From Candidatus Lustribacter sp. (GTDB lineage: Bacteria; Vulcanimicrobiota; Vulcanimicrobiia; Vulcanimicrobiales; Vulcanimicrobiaceae), in contig OZ255842.1 of NCBI GenBank assembly GCA_965277805.1, positions 2,784,001 to 2,848,000 of the forward strand: a stretch of 64,000 nucleotides of DNA, in the 5' to 3' direction. Positions 4,762 through 13,799 of this stretch are shown piece by piece (the first letter of the stretch is position 1; each line of letters starts with the position of its first letter). Below the pieces are notes generated by a model, which saw only the letters and a program-made list of their open reading frames with translations, did no database searches and was not told the DNA's origin. The translations under genes and the position numbers were made by a program.

Positions 4762-5750
4762 ATGCCGTCCCTTGCCCGAAGAGCTTTCGTCACCGGCGCC
4801 GCTGCGCTGGCCACCACCGCCCTCTGGAGACCCGCCCTCGCAAGCGAGCAGCGGGTCAACAATGTCCTCATCGAAGACGACCGGTGGCTGCTGCCGGGCT
4901 GGGAAACCCTGACCGACCCCGACGCCGCCGGGACGGCAAAAACGCTCGATCTCGTCGGCGAAACGGCCAAAATGCTCGCGGCGAAAGGCATCGGCTTGTT
5001 GCTGATGTCGATCCCGTTCAAGGCGCGCTACTGTCCCAATCTCCCGGCGGGCTCTCTGGCCCCGGTGATTGCATCGCGTTACGCGGCGTCGCTGACCGCC
5101 TTGCAGTCGCGCGGCCTGAAGACCGTCGATCTCGAGGGCGCATTGCGGCCCGTCCAAGCGGCCTACTATCCGACCGATCAGCACTGGACGTGGGAGAGCG
5201 TCGACGCCGCCGGTGATGCGCTGGCGGCCGCGTTGCGCGCCAACTGGAGCGTTCCCGACAAAGGGAAACACACGCCGCTGCAGCCGTTCGTCATCGACAA
5301 ACGCTTGGGCGATCTCGCAACGTTACTTCCGCCGGCATTGCAAAAGGAGGTCGGACCCGAGACATACCGCCTCCGCACCGCGTACGGCGGCAACTTGAAC
5401 GCTACAGCGAGTACACCGGTTCGACCGATCCGCAGCCGAAAGACACGCCGGCCGTGCAGCTCGTCGGCAGCGGTTTCGTGCGCCCGATGTGGGGCTTGCC
5501 GCAGAAGCTTCCCAACGTGCTCGGCACCGACGTTGGGCTGACGTTCTTCAACGGCGACGCCGGGCCGTATCATGCGCTGCTGATGAATCTTCGCTCCACG
5601 CTGCCCAAACGCGCTCCCGCCGTCGTGGTCTGGCAGATGACCGAAGCGAACTTGCATCTCGGTTCCGATGCAAAGGGCTGGTGGGGCATCACCTCGCTCA
5701 TGAGCCCCGACTTCTTCCTCTCGCACGTGCAAGCCGCGATCAGCGCTTAA
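4762..5750 (+). pseudogene. AlgJ/AlgX-family SGNH-like O-acyltransferase with Tat signal, frameshifted near 5385-5400
   Basis: ARRAFV Tat-like signal; IPFKARY; YYPTDQHWT (D-x-H); C-terminal half (VQLVGSGF...PAVVVWQMTE) continues in a different frame to stop 5750. Confidence 0.75.
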
Positions 5751-6714
5751 TTAGTTCGGGTCGCCGGTAACCTCGACGTTAACGACCGACGCATCGTTGC
5801 GGTCGGCAGAGAGAACGCTGCACGTGCGATGAAGGACGCGGCGGTGGCGTAACGCTGACCGCGCCGCGCGCTGATCTGCTGGTCACGAAGATCGTCGAGA
5901 GCCCGCCCAGTTTCAGCCGCAAACCTGTCTGGTAATCCTCGGTCAGCGTTTGACTCGGGAAAACATCCTCGGCCGTGACGGAGATGATCTTGAGCGCCGG
6001 CCGGCTGAATGCGCAACCCGCGTCGGCCGACGGCACGAAGCTGCCCATCGCCTCGCGGATGATCATGTCTTTCTGATGATTTTCGGCGAACTCGTCGGCG
6101 TAGGTCCACGACGTCCACTCGAACGGCGGGCGCTCGAGCGGCAAAACGGGGAGCTGAATCATCTGCCGTTGCGGCATCAAGAAGTTGTACATGCGCAGCG
6201 AGAGCGGATGGATCACGTCTTCCGTATCGTGGAGGACCATGATCTCGTACTGCTCCGCACCTTCGGTGCGCTCGATCTCGGCGAAGATCGAGTTGAGGTT
6301 CTGCGCCTTCGTCGTCGGGCCGGGCATCGGGTTGATCACCGGTTTGACCTGCGAGTGGCGCGCGGCCGCCCGTTGTACGGCGGCGACCGTTTCTTCGTCG
6401 TTCGGATACACGCCCACGAAAATATCGTAGCGATGGTATTCGAGCGACGTGGTCGCGAACTCCAGCATGCGTTCGACGACCGGCGACTCGTGCCAGCACG
6501 GAATCATGATCGCAATGCGTTGCTCGGGCTTGGAGCGCAATTTCTCGATGGTCAGCTTGGGAAACTTGTGGCGCTCGAAGCTGCGGATGATCTGGCGAGA
6601 CCAGAACGCCAGGTCGACGACGACATCGTCGAGGCCGAGCAGAACGTACACCGCCGCAACGACGATGGTCAGGACGCTGAAGAGGGCCGCTGCGTGGTAA
6701 CTGAACTCTACCAT
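5751..6714 (-). pseudogene. NfrB-like (phage N4 glycan receptor synthase) GT2 glycosyltransferase, C-terminally truncated
   Basis: IMIPCWHES, IFVGVYPND, PGPTTKAQNLN, LHDTEDVIHP, IQLPVLP, YADEFAENHQKD and LTEDY match NfrB motifs as I recall them; no QxxRW motif or C-terminal TM helices follow. Confidence 0.8.
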
Positions 6715-8139
6715 CTAATGCGAATATCCAAAGAGCACTTCGAGGTTGATCGAGGAGTAGCTACGCGCGACCGGTATCCCGCTGCCGCGCGGCAGGTAGG
6801 TTCCGACATCGGCGTAGACGCGGTAGGTGAAGATGCCGCCGCGCGCTTGCAGCCCCGCGAGACCATCGACGGCGTTGTTGTAGAACGCGCGGCTGGTATC
6901 GAGCGCCAAATCCACCCCGGCCAAGCCCCGCACGATCTTCGAACCGATGTAGAAGTTGTGGGTCACGTCGGCGTAGCCGATGGTGTTGACGTACCGGCTG
7001 TAGTGCGTGAGGCTGGCATCGATCTGCGTTTGCGACTTGTAACCGCCCGCCCCGATGCGCGTGGAGAGGAGCACGCCATAGCGTAAGTCCGACTCGTCGT
7101 GTCCGGTAAGGAGCGACGTGGCCTGGCCGCCCTCGACGAAGGCGTACGCGATCGGTGCGATCTTCGTGCGCAGGCCGGCCGAGAGAATGATGACGTTGTC
7201 GTTAAGGATCTCGTTGGCCGGCACGCTGCTGGCCTTCGCGTCGTTGGTGAGGTGAAAGGCGATATACGGCTGAATGCGCGTGGGCGCCACGTAATAGTGC
7301 GCGTCCAAGCCGTAAAACGTGTCGTGAAAGCGGCTCTCGTTGAGGCCGTAACCGAAGGCGTCGTAGCGCGTCGGCTTGCCGCCGCCGCCGCTGCCCGCGC
7401 CGGCCGCGAGCTGGGCCTTCGCTGCGGTCACGACGTCGGGATCGGACGAATGGGTGAGGGCGTTGAGTTCGGCCGTGCCGCGGGCCGTCTCGCCTTGCCC
7501 CAACAGCGCGTATGCGCGTTCTAAGCGGGCCTTATCGTCGTCGGGGACGAGCGCGATGTACTTATCGAGCGCGGCGATTTGCGCGGGCCGGTCTTTGAGG
7601 ATGAAGTCGATATACGAAACCTGACGCCAGGCGGCGGAATCGTCCGGGTGCGTCGCGAGTGTCGCGAGAAAGGCGTCGCGCGACGCCGCGAGATCGCCGC
7701 CCGCGAGCAACTCATACGCGTTGGTGAACGGCGGCGGCGATGCCGCGGCCGTCGGCGGCAAGACCGGCTGTGCCGGCGCGGGCGCCGGCGCTTGAGCGGC
7801 GAGTTGACGCTGGGCAGCCGCGCTCACGGCTGCAACATGCGAGTTCTTCAAACGTTCGAGCAGCGCCGTCGCTTCGTCGGGCCGATGGTCGGCGATCAAC
7901 GCATAGGCGTAGTCGAGTGCGAAGCGGTCGTCGGCCGAATCGCGCTTGAGAACCAGCGCGCCTTCAGCGACCGCCGCGGAGTATCGCTTGGCGCGCACGT
8001 CCGCATAGAAGACCGCCTTCTCGCGCTCCACCATGGCGCTTTGCGTCGACCCGCTTTGCGCGGCTACCGGTTGGAAGCTCGTGAAGATCGTCGTCAGCGA
8101 CGCGATGGCCGCAATCCCGAGCGGAACGAAGGATCGCAC
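6715..8139 (-). CDS. Secreted TPR-repeat protein with C-terminal beta-barrel-like domain (NfrA/PgaA-type polysaccharide exporter)
   Basis: Signal peptide; helical repeats (DDRFALDYAYAL, DDKARLERAYAL); aromatic-rich alternating C-terminal strands ending EVLFGYSH; abuts the NfrB-like gene; GTG 8139 preceded by AGAAGG. Confidence 0.7.
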   Translation of the reverse strand: MRSFVPLGIAAIASLTTIFTSFQPVAAQSGSTQSAMVEREKAVFYADVRAKRYSAAVAEGALVLKRDSADDRFALDYAYALIADHRPDEATALLERLKNSHVAAVSAAAQRQLAAQAPAPAPAQPVLPPTAAASPPPFTNAYELLAGGDLAASRDAFLATLATHPDDSAAWRQVSYIDFILKDRPAQIAALDKYIALVPDDDKARLERAYALLGQGETARGTAELNALTHSSDPDVVTAAKAQLAAGAGSGGGGKPTRYDAFGYGLNESRFHDTFYGLDAHYYVAPTRIQPYIAFHLTNDAKASSVPANEILNDNVIILSAGLRTKIAPIAYAFVEGGQATSLLTGHDESDLRYGVLLSTRIGAGGYKSQTQIDASLTHYSRYVNTIGYADVTHNFYIGSKIVRGLAGVDLALDTSRAFYNNAVDGLAGLQARGGIFTYRVYADVGTYLPRGSGIPVARSYSSINLEVLFGYSH

Positions 8140-8162
8140 TACACCTTCTACCCAAGGTTGAA

Positions 8163-9130
8163 GCATTCAAGCCCTTACCACGTACGTTTTTTCTGCGCGC
8201 CCTCGGTGCGGCGGCCCTCAGCCTTACTGCCCGGCCGGCGTTCGCGGCCGACCTGATCATCCAAGGAAAGGGCGACTGGCTCTTTCCGGCGTGGGAAAGC
8301 CTCACGGATCCCGGCACGGCCGGCATCGCCGCGGCAACGAAAATCATCGCAGCGGCAAATCGTACATTTAAAGCCGCCGGAATCGGGCTGCTCGTCGAGG
8401 TTGTGCCGATGAAAGCACGTTATTACCCCGACCGCCTACCGGACGGGGTCGCAATGACGCCCGCGGTCACGGCCCGCTACGGCGCGATTCTCGCGGGCCT
8501 CACCGCGGCGGGCGTCGCCAACCTCGACGTCGATGCCGTGCTGCGCACCGTCACTCAGCAGATGTTTCTGCGCACCGACTATCATTGGACCGAGTGGAGC
8601 GCCGAAGCGGTCGCACAAGCTGCCGCAAAGGCGCTGCAGTCGATGGCATCGTTGCCGCCCGCACCGACGCCGCTCCCGCCGCTCACGGCATTCTACACCG
8701 AGTCGCATGGAGGCGACCTCGAGGCGCTGCTCTCGCCCGATCGTCAAAAGAGCATCGGAGCCGAACCGATCACGACGCGCGTGATCGACGCGTCGCGCGT
8801 GCAATTGCTCGACTCCGCTAAGGCCGACGTGCACATCGTCGGCAACAGCTTCTCGATGCCCTATCTCGGCTTCCCCGAAATGCTCGCGGAGACGCTGCAC
8901 GAGCCGGTCGGCGTGACGGCAAAATTCGGCAACGCCGGACCGTGGGAAACGATGGTGCAGTATCTTGAATCGCCGGAGTTCGCGGCGCGGCGCCCGCGCG
9001 CAATCGTCTGGCAATTCGAAAAGGCCTCTTCATGCACGGCCCTGCCTCGACCGGCTTCTGGGATGTGGCCTCGCTGATGTCCGATCAGACGTTCTTGGGG
9101 CGGGTCGCAAAGGCGGTGCCCGCGTCGTGA
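8163..9130 (+). pseudogene. Second AlgJ/AlgX-family O-acyltransferase; no canonical start, frameshift near 9020
   Basis: Frame is open upstream of GTG 8403 (PRTFFLRALGAAAL...GDWLFPAWESLTDP); FLRTDYHWT and VHIVGNSFS motifs; tail GLFMHGPASTGFWDVASLMSDQTFL is in another frame and aligns with the tail of the first copy. Confidence 0.75.
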
Positions 9131-9205
9131 GCGCCGCACCGGATTGGGAAGACGCAAAAACCGTCATTACAACGCAACAGCGACCGCTATGCGGCCGCTT
9201 GGGTC

Positions 9206-9352
9206 TTGACGCGCGCGCCGTTCTGGCCGCTCGCGCGCCGCGGCGGGATCGTGGGGCCCATCGTCCTCGGGCTAGCACTCGCCGTGGTGATCGTGGCGAT
9301 GATCGTGCTGGCTCCGTCGGCTGACTCGCATTTCATCTACACCGATTTCTAG
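9206..9352 (+). CDS. 48-aa single-TM DltX-like micro-protein
   Basis: TTG-start ORF MTRAPFWPLARRGGIVGPIVLGLALAVVIVAMIVLAPSADSHFIYTDF*; ends in FIYxxF; immediately upstream of the DltD-like gene. Confidence 0.75.
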   Translation: MTRAPFWPLARRGGIVGPIVLGLALAVVIVAMIVLAPSADSHFIYTDF

Positions 9353-9407
9353 TCCGGCCGCGCAGCACGAAGCGGCGCTGCGCGCGCCGTGGCCGCTCGC
9401 GATCACC

Positions 9408-10293
9408 GTGGCTGCGGCCGTACTGATTCTGCTCGACCTCGTTTTTCGCGCGTTGTGGCACCCGCATCCCTCGCGCCTGCCCGAGCAGTTCTCGACGCCG
9501 TACTTGAAGGCGTACGTCGATGCCGAACGCGGCGCGGCACCCGTCGTCGTGCTGGGCGACTCCGCGCTTTGGGGTTACGAGTTGCCGGCCGGCGAGGCGC
9601 CGGTCGAGCAACTCGCCGCGCTGCGCAAACAGGATGCGTTCCTCAACCTCAGCTACGAGGGCGGCAGCGTGGTCAACAGCCTCTATGCGCTGCGGCTGGC
9701 GCTTTCGCGGGGCGTGCGTCCGAGCGCCGTGATCGTGAACCTCAATAGCAAGGAATTCAACGCGTCCGACAGCGCGTATAAACGCCTTTTGCCCGCGCTC
9801 GAACGCGCGATGGCGCCGACCCTCAGCGCGCACGACCGCGCGCTGCTCACGACGCTGCCCGCCCCGACGATCGCCGACCGGCTCGACGCGGCGGTATCAC
9901 GCATTTGGGCGCTCTACCGCAACCGCGTCGACGTTCGCGTCGCGCTGTTCGGGTACGACGACTTCACGGGCCTGGTGACGGCCGGCATTCACCAGCTCAC
10001 CGGTGAGACCCAACGCTACGAATCGGCGCACCGGCCGACACCCGAAGCGTTTCTCGGAACCTACAACCTCGATCCGATCGGGTCCGGTAACGTCGAGGCA
10101 ATCTATCTGGGCGAATTGCGCAACGAACTCGTGCGCGCACACATTCCCACCATCGCCTTTCTCACGCCGACGAACCATCGTTTGCTATCCGACACGACGA
10201 GCGACCCGGCCTACGCCGCGAACCTGAAGCACATCGCTAGCTTGATGGCCGGTCCCGGCATTCACGTCGTCGACCTCGATCGCCTCGACGTCG
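9408..10293 (+). pseudogene. DltD-like membrane-anchored SGNH protein, truncated before the catalytic D-x-x-H
   Basis: N-terminal TM; VVVLGDS; FLNLSYEGG; VIVNLNSKEF; FLTPTN; protein-like sequence ends at VVDLDRLDVG. True start may be slightly upstream. Confidence 0.65.
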
Positions 10294-10467
10294 GCCTGGG
10301 GCGAGTTCGTCGTGCCCCGCTTTCCGTTTCTCGCCCGGGGCGCGTACTGGCACGGCGCATCCGTTGCAGCGACGTTTACGTTTGTGGCGCTCGGGTGGGT
10401 GCTCTTCGCGTCGCCGTCAATTCCAACCGCGATGATCGTCTTCAGCAACCTCATCCCGCATCGTTAG
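10294..10467 (+). pseudogene. C-terminal remnant of an MBOAT (DltB/AlgI-type) acyltransferase
   Basis: Manual translation AWGEFVVPRFPFLARGAYWHGASVAATFTFVALGWVLFASPSIPTAMIVFSNLIPHR*; TFxFVxLGWVLF is typical of the last MBOAT helix. Confidence 0.65.
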
Positions 10468-10993: not shown

Positions 10994-12268
10994 CTACGGA
11001 CGGCGGCGCGGCACCGGGGTCGTGATGCTGCCGGGTTCGACCTTGATCATCCCGGGCGTATCGCACGGGATCTCGACCGTTTCGATGTCGGGCTTCACGT
11101 CGCGCAAGGGACCCGGCAGCGTGAGGGCGCCGGGTTTGGAGACGTCGGGCGCGGAGTCGACCGGGCGCAGGGGGTGCTCGGTGATCTTGTATGCGCGGCA
11201 CACATCCTTACCCAGCAGCCCGTGGACGTGTTCGTAGACGTACTCCACTGAGTCTGCCCGGCTGACCGTGCGGGTGGTGTAAATCAAACCGAAGGTCTTC
11301 GCCAGGATCTCAAGCGGCGGCGCGAGCGCGGCTTCGTAGGCGTCGAGGACGCGGTTGGTGGTGTAGCCCGAGCCGAGGTCGACCTTCTGCATGCCGGCCG
11401 TCGGTTTGGTCGGCAGCGCGGCGCGCAGCCGATCGTTCAAATTGCCCAGTCCCGCGGCGGGCGCCGTCGTGGCCGCTGGCCGGGGCACCGCTGACGGCGT
11501 CGTCAGTGCAACCGGAACGTGGACGGGCGCCGGAATCGGCGTGGCCGGCAGTGCAACGCGCAGCGGTGCGGGCCCGGCGGTGGCGGGCCCCGGTGCAGCG
11601 ACGGCGGCGGGACGCGGCACCGCACGTTCGGCGACGGCCGTCGCTACAGCCGTTGGTACTGCGGTCGGGGCGGCGGTGGCGCGCGTCGTCGGGGCGGCGG
11701 TCGGCGCGACCGTGGGGACCGCGGCCGGTGCTTGTGTCGGGCGTTCCGTCGGCTCGGGCGTGGGCCGCACGGTCGGCTCGGGCGTCGGCCTGATCGTCGG
11801 TTCGGGCGTCGGGCGGACGGTCGGTTCCGGCGTTGGTTCCGGCGTCGGACGGATCGTGGGTTCCGGCGTTGGACGGACGGTGGGTTCCGGCGGAAGCGGC
11901 TCGGGCGCAATGACTGGCGGCGGGCTTGGTGGTTGCGGCGTTGCGTTCGGAACGATGCGCGCGAGTTCGCGCGCCACCGGCGGAACGGTCGGAACGATTT
12001 TCGGTCGCGGACGCGGCGGAACGGGAACCGGTACCACACGCGGACGCACGACCGGCGCGGCGGTGTGGATGACGACCGGCGGCGGCGACGTCACGGGCGG
12101 CGCGGTCTCCGTGTGAATCGTCAGTTGCGTGTCGGCCACGACCGATTCGGGCGCGCCGCCTTCGATGAGCGCGCGCAAGACGAACGCGGCCAACAGCACG
12201 AGCGCGACGGCATGAATGAGGATCGAGCAGAGATACGCCACGGCGAATCGTCGCCGGTCGCCGGGCAT
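10994..12268 (-). CDS. Membrane-anchored Pro/Thr-rich protein with TonB-like anchor and unknown C-terminal domain
   Basis: TM helix with SILIH (SxxxH); long PTPEPT-repeat linker; ~140-aa globular C-terminus. Confidence 0.7.
   Translation of the reverse strand: MPGDRRRFAVAYLCSILIHAVALVLLAAFVLRALIEGGAPESVVADTQLTIHTETAPPVTSPPPVVIHTAAPVVRPRVVPVPVPPRPRPKIVPTVPPVARELARIVPNATPQPPSPPPVIAPEPLPPEPTVRPTPEPTIRPTPEPTPEPTVRPTPEPTIRPTPEPTVRPTPEPTERPTQAPAAVPTVAPTAAPTTRATAAPTAVPTAVATAVAERAVPRPAAVAAPGPATAGPAPLRVALPATPIPAPVHVPVALTTPSAVPRPAATTAPAAGLGNLNDRLRAALPTKPTAGMQKVDLGSGYTTNRVLDAYEAALAPPLEILAKTFGLIYTTRTVSRADSVEYVYEHVHGLLGKDVCRAYKITEHPLRPVDSAPDVSKPGALTLPGPLRDVKPDIETVEIPCDTPGMIKVEPGSITTPVPRRRP
11737..11895 (-). 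repeat. Coding tandem repeat of ~24 nt (PEPT[V/I/E]RPT, about 6 copies)
   Basis: Repeat visible in protein and DNA, with synonymous variation between copies. Confidence 0.85.
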
Positions 12269-12365
12269 GCGACGCACGCCGCAGTCTACCGTCCGGGCAG
12301 GTCGATGGCCTTTCCAAGTATGTGACACAAAATGGCTGCGCGCTTTTGTTCCGAACGCAGGGGCA

Positions 12366-13799
12366 ATGACTAAGCGGACCAAGATCGTGGCCACGATCGG
12401 GCCGGCGTCCCGCGAACCGAACATGCTGCGCGAGCTGTTTCGGGCCGGCGTCAACGTCGCGCGGCTGAACTTCTCGCACGGAACGCACGCGGAGCACGCG
12501 GCCGTCATCGCCGACGTCCGCGCGATCGCAGCCGAACTGGGGATGCACGTCGCGGTGCTGCAAGATCTGCCCGGACCCAAAGTGCGCACCGGTCCGCTGG
12601 CCGACGGTGCACCGTCGGTGCTGCTCGCCAACGGCGCGCCGTTTACGCTCACGACCGATGCCGTCTCCGGCACGGCTGCGCGCGTCAGCGTTTCGTACGC
12701 CGGTTTGGCGGCCGACGTCGAAGCCGGCAAACACATCTATCTCGCCGACGGCGCGATCTCGCTCGTCATCGAATCGGTCGTGGGCAGCGACGTTCACACC
12801 CGGGTCGAAAGCGGCGGCGCGCTGCGGCCGATGCAAGGCATCAACTATCCCGACGGCACGCTCAAACTCGATGCGGTCACCGATCGCGACTTCGAACATC
12901 TCGCCTTCGGCCTCGACGCCGGCGTCGACTGGGTGGGCGTCTCGTTCGTGCGCAGCGCAGCCGACATCGAGCGCGTGCGGGCGTTCATGGACGAGCGCGG
13001 CAAACGCGTTCCGATCATGGCCAAGATCGAAAAGCACGAAGCGCTCGAAGACATCGACAACATCGTGCTGGCTGCCGACGGCATCATGGTGGCGCGCGGC
13101 GACCTCGGCATCGAGGTCCGGCTCGAAGACGTGCCGCTGATCCAGAAAGACCTGATCGCGCGCGCCAATCGCGCCTCGAAGCCGGTGGTCACCGCGACGC
13201 AGATGCTCGAGTCGATGATTTCGAGTTCGCGCCCGACACGCGCCGAAGCCACCGACGTCGCCAACGCGATCCTCGACGGCACCGATGCGGTCATGCTCAG
13301 CGGCGAAACGGCACGCGGCGAATATCCGCTCGAAGCGGTGCGCACGATGGCGACGATCGCTGCCGCGGTCGAGAAGCAGTATCCGCACGGGCGCTTCTTC
13401 CGCCGTCACCAAAGCGACGTGGACATTCGCGCCAGCGACGATATCGCCACAGCGATCGCCGAAGCGGCCGCCAGCAGCGCCGAGCGATTGAACCTAAAGC
13501 TGATCGTGACCGGTACGACCACCGGCAACACCGCGCGTTACATCTCGTCGTTCCGCCCGAAGGCGATGATCATCGGGCTCACGCCGTTACCGGAGATCGC
13601 GCGCCAGATGACGATGGCGTGGGGCGTCGAGTCGGTCCTCGTGCAGAACTATCGCTATTTTGAAACGCTGATCGAGATCGCCGAACAGCGCGTCATCACC
13701 GACGGCCTCGCCCAGCCCGGCGAAACCATCGCCATCACCAGCGGCATGCCCGTCGGCGCCGGCGGCACGAACGTCTTAAAAATTCACCGCCTCCCGTAA
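12366..13799 (+). CDS. pyk: Pyruvate kinase
   Basis: RTKIVATIGPAS, ARLNFSHG, MVARGDLG, ATQMLESM, DAVMLSGETA. Confidence 0.98.
   Translation: MTKRTKIVATIGPASREPNMLRELFRAGVNVARLNFSHGTHAEHAAVIADVRAIAAELGMHVAVLQDLPGPKVRTGPLADGAPSVLLANGAPFTLTTDAVSGTAARVSVSYAGLAADVEAGKHIYLADGAISLVIESVVGSDVHTRVESGGALRPMQGINYPDGTLKLDAVTDRDFEHLAFGLDAGVDWVGVSFVRSAADIERVRAFMDERGKRVPIMAKIEKHEALEDIDNIVLAADGIMVARGDLGIEVRLEDVPLIQKDLIARANRASKPVVTATQMLESMISSSRPTRAEATDVANAILDGTDAVMLSGETARGEYPLEAVRTMATIAAAVEKQYPHGRFFRRHQSDVDIRASDDIATAIAEAAASSAERLNLKLIVTGTTTGNTARYISSFRPKAMIIGLTPLPEIARQMTMAWGVESVLVQNYRYFETLIEIAEQRVITDGLAQPGETIAITSGMPVGAGGTNVLKIHRLP

Follow-up and report, generated by a model that had tools for sequence, protein, structure and literature searches.

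A separately encoded tyrosine-tailed microprotein as the probable acyl shuttle of a short MBOAT protein, with a broken copy in Candidatus Lustribacter sp.

Introduction

The systems closest to the locus described here are the DltX/DltB/DltD proteins of teichoic-acid D-alanylation in Firmicutes and the O-acetyltransferases PatA/PatB and AlgI/AlgJ/AlgX (also WssH and CcsH). The former share with our module a separate single-transmembrane (TM) microprotein ending in F-x-Y-x-x-F, a short MBOAT protein without that motif, and a membrane-anchored SGNH protein with a DltD-like fold. The latter share with it an AlgI-like MBOAT, an SGNH partner, and the lack of a carrier or ligase gene; in PatA and AlgI, however, the motif sits on two extra C-terminal helices, whereas in the module it lies on a separate gene. 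The available part of PMC12148441 (2025) demonstrates acetylation of the tyrosine in the fused motif of PatA, and describes MBOAT/SGNH pathways other than Dlt as having no DltX-like microprotein, with the motif fused instead. In the accessible portions of PMC13653941 and PMC5541007, DltX is treated as Gram-positive, and dlt genes are noted in Dickeya and Pectobacterium. The latter operons, as cited in the accessible portion of PMC5541007, resemble the module in placing Dlt-type genes in a diderm, with LPS thought to be the target, but they are dlt operons proper, whereas the module lacks genes for a ligase or carrier. In a body of literature containing few subscription papers, the searches returned no report of a split non-Dlt system, so that novelty in print is only partly checked.

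Herein, we analyzed a window of 64,000 nucleotides from Candidatus Lustribacter sp. (contig OZ255842.1), in which an earlier note had proposed a DltX-like microprotein belonging to a split Dlt-type relay. The conservation of the microprotein, the distribution of split and fused MBOATs, the catalytic motifs, the missing matches to Dlt ligase and carrier, and the decay of the locus were computed here. By analogy with the described systems, we consider it likely that the microprotein acts in trans as the tyrosine shuttle of a motif-less MBOAT, in a carrier-less split relay probably fed by acetyl-CoA. The copy in the window is a broken remnant.

Results

Microprotein gene in the window

The features of the locus are given below in window coordinates; G002 and G003 are genomes of the same genus, and G000 is the genome of the window.

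4762–5750, plus strand: AlgX-family SGNH gene 1 (PF16822); frameshift at ~5400; GSSF in G002 and G003 reads GSGF here
5824–6714, minus strand: NfrB-type GT2 synthase, N-terminal ~300 of ~760 residues; frameshift at ~5875; remainder, including MshEN, deleted (~2.2 kb at 5824)
6715–8166, minus strand: TPR plus probable outer-membrane barrel protein (NfrA-like lead); frame intact
8145–8148, no strand: deletion junction; the 2.4 kb lost held a BcsB-like gene (G002: 604 aa) plus the gene of a 143–163-aa exported protein
8145–9130, plus strand: AlgX-family SGNH gene 2 (PF16822); 5′ end lost to the 2.4-kb deletion; frameshift at ~9020
9127–9352, plus strand: putative acyl-shuttle microprotein gene, full extent; 75 codons in G002 and G003; 2-nt deletion at ~9171; GTG start overlapping the stop codon of AlgX-family gene 2
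9206–9352, plus strand: 48-codon ORF, residues 28–75 of the microprotein; TM helix ~9257–9316; FIYTDF 9332–9349; Tyr codon 9338–9340
9375–10296, plus strand: SGNH transferase, membrane-anchored; weak DUF1574 match; DltD-like fold in the G002 orthologue; GDS Ser codon 9561–9563; C-terminal DxxH deleted
10297–10467, plus strand: MBOAT remnant, residues 344–399 of a short motif-less MBOAT (399–400 aa); 1116 bp deleted relative to G003

The ORF with one TM helix and a terminal FIYTDF is present as the earlier note had claimed: it encodes 48 aa from a TTG start, ends in FIYTDF-stop, and has a single hydrophobic segment (Kyte–Doolittle 19-mer maximum of 3.0, starting at residues 18–19). The start given for it was wrong. 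In G002 and G003, the GTG start of the 75-codon gene corresponds to position 9127 of the window, and the two nucleotides absent at ~9171 put the gene in this genome out of frame. Translation from GTG 9127 yields 15–16 correct residues and junk thereafter, residues 1–17 and 16–75 of the G002 microprotein match the window in different frames, and the 48-codon ORF is the in-frame rest of the gene. No obvious Shine–Dalgarno sequence was seen upstream of the TTG on inspection by eye.

F-x-Y-x-x-F-stop ends only 3 of the 202,787 stop-to-stop frames in the six frames of the 5.53-Mb genome, and only one of the three, the ORF at 9206–9352, contains a TM stretch. Searching 8000 candidates with a microprotein profile built on 8 sequences returned 219 clusters at E ≤ 0.01, and profile A4 matched G000 with an E value of 3.3e-26. 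When the gene was compared between G002 and G003, differences at codon positions 1, 2, and 3 numbered 9, 3, and 30, with 24 synonymous versus 11 nonsynonymous codons, which fits a protein gene under selection. A chance ORF was ruled out by the rarity of the motif genome-wide, the 219 homologue clusters, and the codon-position pattern.

L28, G49, P64, S68, F70, I71, Y72, D74, and F75 were invariant in all 73 aligned members. Across phyla, F, Y, and F of the motif were the sole invariant residues (33 of 33 aligned, from 34 locus-linked members); together with the 219 clusters, this answers the objection, raised in the earlier note, that the ORF might not be conserved. The microprotein could also be a structural or stabilizing subunit of the MBOAT whose tyrosine carries no acyl group. 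Its N-terminal 27 residues are conserved within Eremiobacterota, which would suit such a role, and its acyl-tyrosine function is proposed by analogy. Against a structural role, only the three motif residues hold across phyla, and the available part of PMC12148441 presents the same motif as a demonstrated acylated intermediate in PatA and DltX. We give the structural role hardly any credence and prefer the tyrosine shuttle.

The DltX family model PF12459 matched neither the window protein nor the G002 microprotein, and gave a weak match in 2 of 33 locus-linked members (best E 0.031). Unlike DltX, the microprotein thus falls below the PF12459 cut-off, and it has a conserved N-terminal extension and a length of 61–86 aa in Eremiobacterota. 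By analogy, it is best read as working like DltX, yet outside PF12459 and Dlt operons. No solved structure matched the microprotein profile (best E 0.2). An Atlas search returned its own cluster at 0.93 and, as a lead only, a Verrucomicrobiota cluster at 0.87 with PF12459 on 45% of its members. A DltX-like ORF ending in FIYNEF lies upstream of dltA at L132:~400–540 and is missing from the gene table of that record.

Of 301 genomes from the phylum, 20 gave profile matches, indicating that the module is patchy there. Against 1.84 billion representatives, the profile gave 28 matches only, indicating that it fails to reach the microproteins of other phyla. When 13 loci were fetched around the SGNH homologue, a motif ORF lay directly upstream in 7; the remaining 6 comprised one with the ORF cut by N's, one at a contig end, and four FkbH/ACP loci.

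Split and fused MBOAT loci

From 499 genome loci with relatives of the short MBOAT, the best 80 were taken and sorted according to whether the MBOAT ends in the motif. These loci are kin, picked by similarity to the split MBOAT, and the counts are not independent events. Among these 80, 34 of the 38 motif-less MBOATs (316–429 aa) were accompanied within 2.6 kb by a same-strand TM micro-ORF ending in F-x-Y-x-x-F, the kind of small ORF that the earlier note had suggested looking for beside MBOAT and SGNH genes in relatives. The contigs of the other four end 12–661 bp upstream. None of the 42 motif-bearing MBOATs (465–578 aa) in the same set had a neighbouring micro-ORF, with ~3 kb of flank on both sides in 31 of the 42.

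The 38 split loci consist of an Eremiobacterota block of 22 (five records with another or no taxon label), 6 Chthonomonadales, 4 Firmicutes including Cohnella boryungensis, 3 Coriobacteriia, and 1 each from Binatia, Deltaproteobacteria, and Peregrinibacteria. Their gene orders were X-S-M, M-X-S, and S-M-X (X, microprotein; S, SGNH; M, MBOAT), and the intact Eremiobacterota relatives have the order microprotein, DltD-fold SGNH, MBOAT. The MBOAT remnant in the window ends without the motif, as the earlier note had stated, and so do the intact MBOATs of 397–401 aa in relatives. G002 and G003 each have a second MBOAT, which bears its own motif (NPFIYFRF, KVFIYFRF). That the ORF might be the broken tail of an AlgI-like gene, the other objection of the earlier note, was excluded by the gene order and the intact short MBOATs: in relatives the gene lies upstream of SGNH and MBOAT genes, and these MBOATs are motif-less.

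The locus at L072:10001–13844 holds both kinds: a split MBOAT with its microprotein and, tail-to-tail with it, a fused MBOAT. At L038:9755–11191 and L053:9722–11195, the microprotein gene is immediately 5′ of the MBOAT gene, and there was no SGNH homologue in the fetched locus.

Partner proteins and acyl donor

G-x-W-H-G was found in 38 of 38 split MBOATs, and the catalytic His of the MBOAT and the Ser/Asp/His of the SGNH protein are present in relatives. In an alignment of 28 SGNH sequences, D-x-x-H was 100% conserved and the GDS serine 93%; the SGNH query missed the partner in 8 of 36 split loci. The DltD Pfam model did not match the SGNH partner, and the SGNH profile reached two DltD sequences at E 0.08–0.10. 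In the model of the G002 SGNH orthologue (pLDDT 89.9), DltD occupied the top 11 Foldseek rows and came first by VIA-align (Z 15.8, rmsd 4.5, 279 aligned), with generic GDSL chains tying on Z at ~175 aligned residues.

Modelling the complex with an intact MBOAT, a check proposed in the earlier note, gave a score of 0.40 for MBOAT plus microprotein versus 0.00 for the best control, which lends weak support, with no interface reported. The runs shared at least 77% of contacts, with a partner pLDDT of at least 57. In calibration, 116 of 157 solved pairs attained this mark, against 2 of 215 mismatched ones; passes at ≤0.60 comprised 18 of the 157 solved pairs and both passing mismatches.

No dltA or dltC had been visible to the earlier note, which was confirmed for the window; neither was found in the genome. 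DltA, DltC, and the DltX family (PF12459) were over cut-off in 0 of 5 genomes, and the TagF family (PF04464) was also found in 0 of 5; controls rang (G002 is 79% and G003 72% complete). DltC queries miss FkbH-linked ACPs, so a distant carrier could escape detection. Around the 38 split loci, only 18 of which have at least 5 kb on both sides, there was no DltA, DltC, or AlgF (one query), and ACP/FkbH was near 1 of the 38. FkbH was not found in G000, G002, G003, G010, G011, G024, or G054, and was found in G009, G019, and G021, which served as the positive control. The MBOAT scored 188.9 bits against the DltB model TIGR04091 (cut-off 375), with identities of ~39–44% to fused AlgI-type proteins and ~28–31% to annotated DltB.

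Unlike Dlt systems, the module thus comes without DltA, DltC, or TagF found, belongs to a diderm host, has an MBOAT nearer in sequence to AlgI-type proteins than to DltB, and varies in gene order. Unlike the PatA and AlgI systems, it has no AlgF in the loci searched, its SGNH protein is DltD-like rather than AlgJ-like, and an extra exported protein co-occurs. A true DltX/Dlt operon was excluded by the TIGR04091 score, the absent DltA, DltC, and DltX matches, and the PF12459 result. An FkbH-fed system was rejected because FkbH was not found in the seven genomes named above.

In this phylum, fused MBOATs fed by FkbH/ACP have partners from the same SGNH family (E 3e-98). At the four FkbH/ACP loci (L028:8520–12907, L029:11500–15711, L030:7962–12900, and L031:7880–12791), the SGNH gene stands with that of a very distant MBOAT (26–27% identity). 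The MBOATs of three of these loci end in a fused variant motif with the first Phe replaced (HIVYKAF, HVIYKAF, and RLVYKGF), and such loci are a probable glyceryl-transfer version of the relay.

A quick full-length tree had 76 rows, namely 63 of the 80 loci and 13 added sequences, with 17 near-duplicate, truncated, or frameshifted ones left out. All but one of its 34 split MBOATs fell into a single clade (SH-aLRT 96), and DltB was joined by a long branch to FkbH-type proteins. In a core-only tree of 32 rows, 15 fused rows lay on one side (90/98) and DltB was among the split rows. The two trees disagree on whether the split state arose by independent fission or from an ancestry shared with DltB. 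With the microprotein profile and a 43-sequence set, fused MBOAT tails scored at best E ~1e-6, above one DltX (E 8e-4); these scores mostly reflect the TM segment and the motif.

The same relay might be fed by a carrier encoded elsewhere, such as a general ACP or an unlinked peptidyl carrier, and transfer a non-acetyl group (amino acid, glyceryl, or fatty acyl), which would make it a distant cousin of DltB-DltX-DltD. The DltD-like SGNH fold would suit this, as would the related SGNH serving FkbH/ACP-linked MBOATs and the many AMP-binding enzymes that the genomes have below the DltA cut-off. The trees pull in opposite directions, the core-only tree attaching DltB on the split side and the full-length tree placing it elsewhere, and both the lack of DltC and FkbH in the genomes tested and the closer identity of the MBOAT to fused AlgI-type proteins argue against it. 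We regard a carrier-fed relay as unlikely. In the accessible text of PMC12148441, a missing carrier is reasoned to point to an acyl-CoA donor; since no carrier gene was found, the same reasoning suggests an acyl-CoA donor here, and acetyl as the group is suggested because the MBOAT is AlgI-like and AlgX genes lie alongside. By this analogy, the donor of the carrier-less relay that we favour is probably acetyl-CoA.

A co-occurring exported protein

An exported protein of 143–180 aa was encoded within ~4 kb of 16 of the 22 split loci of the Eremiobacterota block and at 3 of 4 FkbH loci; none of the 42 fused loci had it nearby. When 60 relatives were searched whole, 9 of the 10 carrying the SGNH gene also had the exported protein (8 of 9 leaving out G026), as against 0 of the 50 lacking that gene. 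Tyr110 was invariant in 23 sequences. No Pfam or PDB sequence match was found, and the model (pLDDT 84.7) had no clear fold match (Foldseek best E 0.26; VIA best Z 5.5, rmsd 3.8, 97 aligned). The gene lies at L020:5687–6175 on the minus strand and is deleted in this genome at window position 8145. The protein is a candidate fourth subunit of the module.

Host and genomic context

Named homologues were mostly from Ca. Eremiobacterota. The diderm host that the earlier note had held probable was supported by Omp85 in 3 of 3 genomes tested; the available part of PMC9758169 describes the cultured representative of the phylum as having a Gram-negative wall with LPS. In G002, the locus comprises AlgX-family gene 1, followed on the minus strand by genes for a 287-aa protein, an NfrB-type GT2 with MshEN, the TPR plus barrel protein, a BcsB-like protein, and a 163-aa protein, and on the plus strand by AlgX-family gene 2 and the genes for the microprotein, the SGNH protein, and a 400-aa MBOAT, the whole cluster lying between nusA and rimP. 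In this genus, the NfrB/NfrA-like cluster, which also takes in two AlgX-family genes and a BcsB-like gene, is inserted between nusA and rimP; its window counterpart spans 4762–10467.

The G002 GT2 orthologue matched PF05157, NF053729, and PRK14716.1–3 over the cut-off and PRK11234 under it, and scored 517 bits against the NfrB equivalog (cut-off 1170). The TPR plus probable barrel protein gave TPR matches, and its top Atlas hit was NfrA_C (0.93, 141 shared features), with other barrels at 0.91–0.92. NfrB/NfrA of E. coli, the N4 glycan receptor synthase, is described in the available part of PMC8669472 as a synthase-dependent exopolysaccharide system; it resembles the cluster in having a GT2 with an MshEN c-di-GMP domain beside a TPR plus barrel protein, as in the G002 orthologues. 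Unlike NfrB/NfrA, the cluster has a GT2 well under the equivalog cut-off, a BcsB-like gene and the acylation module attached, and a truncation in this genome. As in AlgI/AlgJ/AlgX, two AlgX-family genes of this genus adjoin a synthase-dependent exopolysaccharide cluster.

The context of AlgX plus NfrB was found in 2 of 38 split loci, both from this genus. At other loci, glycosyltransferase or sugar-nucleotide genes made up 60 of 166 candidate neighbours scanned; with glycan genes so frequent, the module looks portable and its acceptor probably varies. For this genus, analogy points to the exopolysaccharide made by the neighbouring NfrB-type synthase as the probable acceptor. The polymer that the earlier note called unknown is thus less unknown than stated, the module flanking an NfrB-type synthase cluster here.

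Several further observations were made around the cluster. Both AlgX-family proteins start with twin-arginine-like signals, as judged by eye. A second NfrB-type GT2 (two frames) lies at G000:C1:470910–472914 without the other cluster genes alongside, and a BcsB-like paralogue lies away from them at G000:C1:3957262–3958854. The 287-aa exported protein downstream of the G002 GT2 (L123:13218–14078, minus strand) has no Pfam match and is absent from the window region. Upstream of rimP, the window encodes a 580-aa membrane-anchored protein with Pro/Thr repeats (10994–12736, minus strand), which is conserved in G002 and G003.

Decay of the locus

Measured against G003, the window has lost ~2.2 kb at 5824, 2.4 kb at 8145, and 1116 bp at 10296, and its frame is shifted in AlgX-family gene 1, the GT2 gene, AlgX-family gene 2, and the microprotein gene. 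The deletion at 10296 takes out the D-x-x-H of the SGNH protein and MBOAT residues 1–343, including the catalytic His321. A partner MBOAT acting in trans was excluded, as no other MBOAT (PF03062) was found in G000, a single contig that is 95% complete, nor does G000 contain a counterpart of the second, motif-bearing MBOAT of G002 or G003.

The breaks might be sequencing or assembly errors, with the module intact and working in this organism. G003 also differs from the window by 1-nt indels in housekeeping genes, and deletions of one or two bases can be systematic read errors. However, all three deletions (1.1–2.4 kb) and four frameshifts fall within one 5.7-kb locus, whereas all nine flanking genes tested are intact, each aligning in one frame. 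Moreover, the deleted MBOAT, BcsB-like, and small exported-protein genes have no orthologues elsewhere in G000. Contigs from four sequencing runs agreed with the window at 0 differences, each large junction being bridged by three runs and position 9171 by two. These four runs come from one sample, possibly the source of the window assembly, so an error at the assembly step is better excluded than a systematic read error of 1–2 nt. We consider errors a very unlikely explanation. Judged from its sequence, the module in this genome is non-functional, the locus is decaying, and this copy of the microprotein gene is a pseudogene. The split relay in a probable diderm therefore holds for the family, on the loci of relatives, but this broken copy is not supported as a working relay.

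Discussion

By analogy with DltX and PatA, the module of microprotein, SGNH protein, and MBOAT is probably a relay in which a separate tyrosine-tailed peptide carries an acyl group across the inner membrane. All the chemical steps, the topology, the donor, and the acceptor of the following scheme take PMC12148441 as the template. A 75-aa single-pass inner-membrane microprotein would supply the shuttle hexapeptide in trans to the short MBOAT, which would receive a cytoplasmic acyl thioester, most likely acetyl-CoA. His321 of the MBOAT would activate transfer to Tyr72 of the microprotein at the periplasmic face, and the DltD-fold SGNH protein would accept the group on its GDS serine and hand it on to a glycan of the envelope. 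In this genus, the two AlgX-family proteins would perhaps relay the group onto the NfrB-type exopolysaccharide.

A broader picture can be drawn, which as a whole we regard as speculative and rather doubtful. In it, the acyl-CoA-fed relay with a free shuttle and a DltD-fold transferase would form one mobile, multi-phylum MBOAT lineage linking fused AlgI/PatA and Dlt systems; Eremiobacterota would add the exported tyrosine protein as an adaptor or second shuttle; and this genus would O-acylate an Nfr-type exopolysaccharide under c-di-GMP control.

Since the copy in the window is a pseudogene, it is a pointer to the system and not a working example. The complementary pattern of split and fused loci describes a carrier-less lineage that breaks the rule stated in the available part of PMC12148441, in records named Eremiobacterota, Armatimonadota, Binatia, Deltaproteobacteria, Firmicutes, Coriobacteriia, and Peregrinibacteria. 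It also provides an annotation rule, in that an MBOAT of ~400 aa without the motif predicts a small neighbouring gene. The three-protein system of the cultured species Cohnella boryungensis could be used to test a free shuttle with acyl-CoA, and a function could be assigned to DUF1574-like SGNH proteins, a family listed without known function in the accessible portion of PMC9487903.
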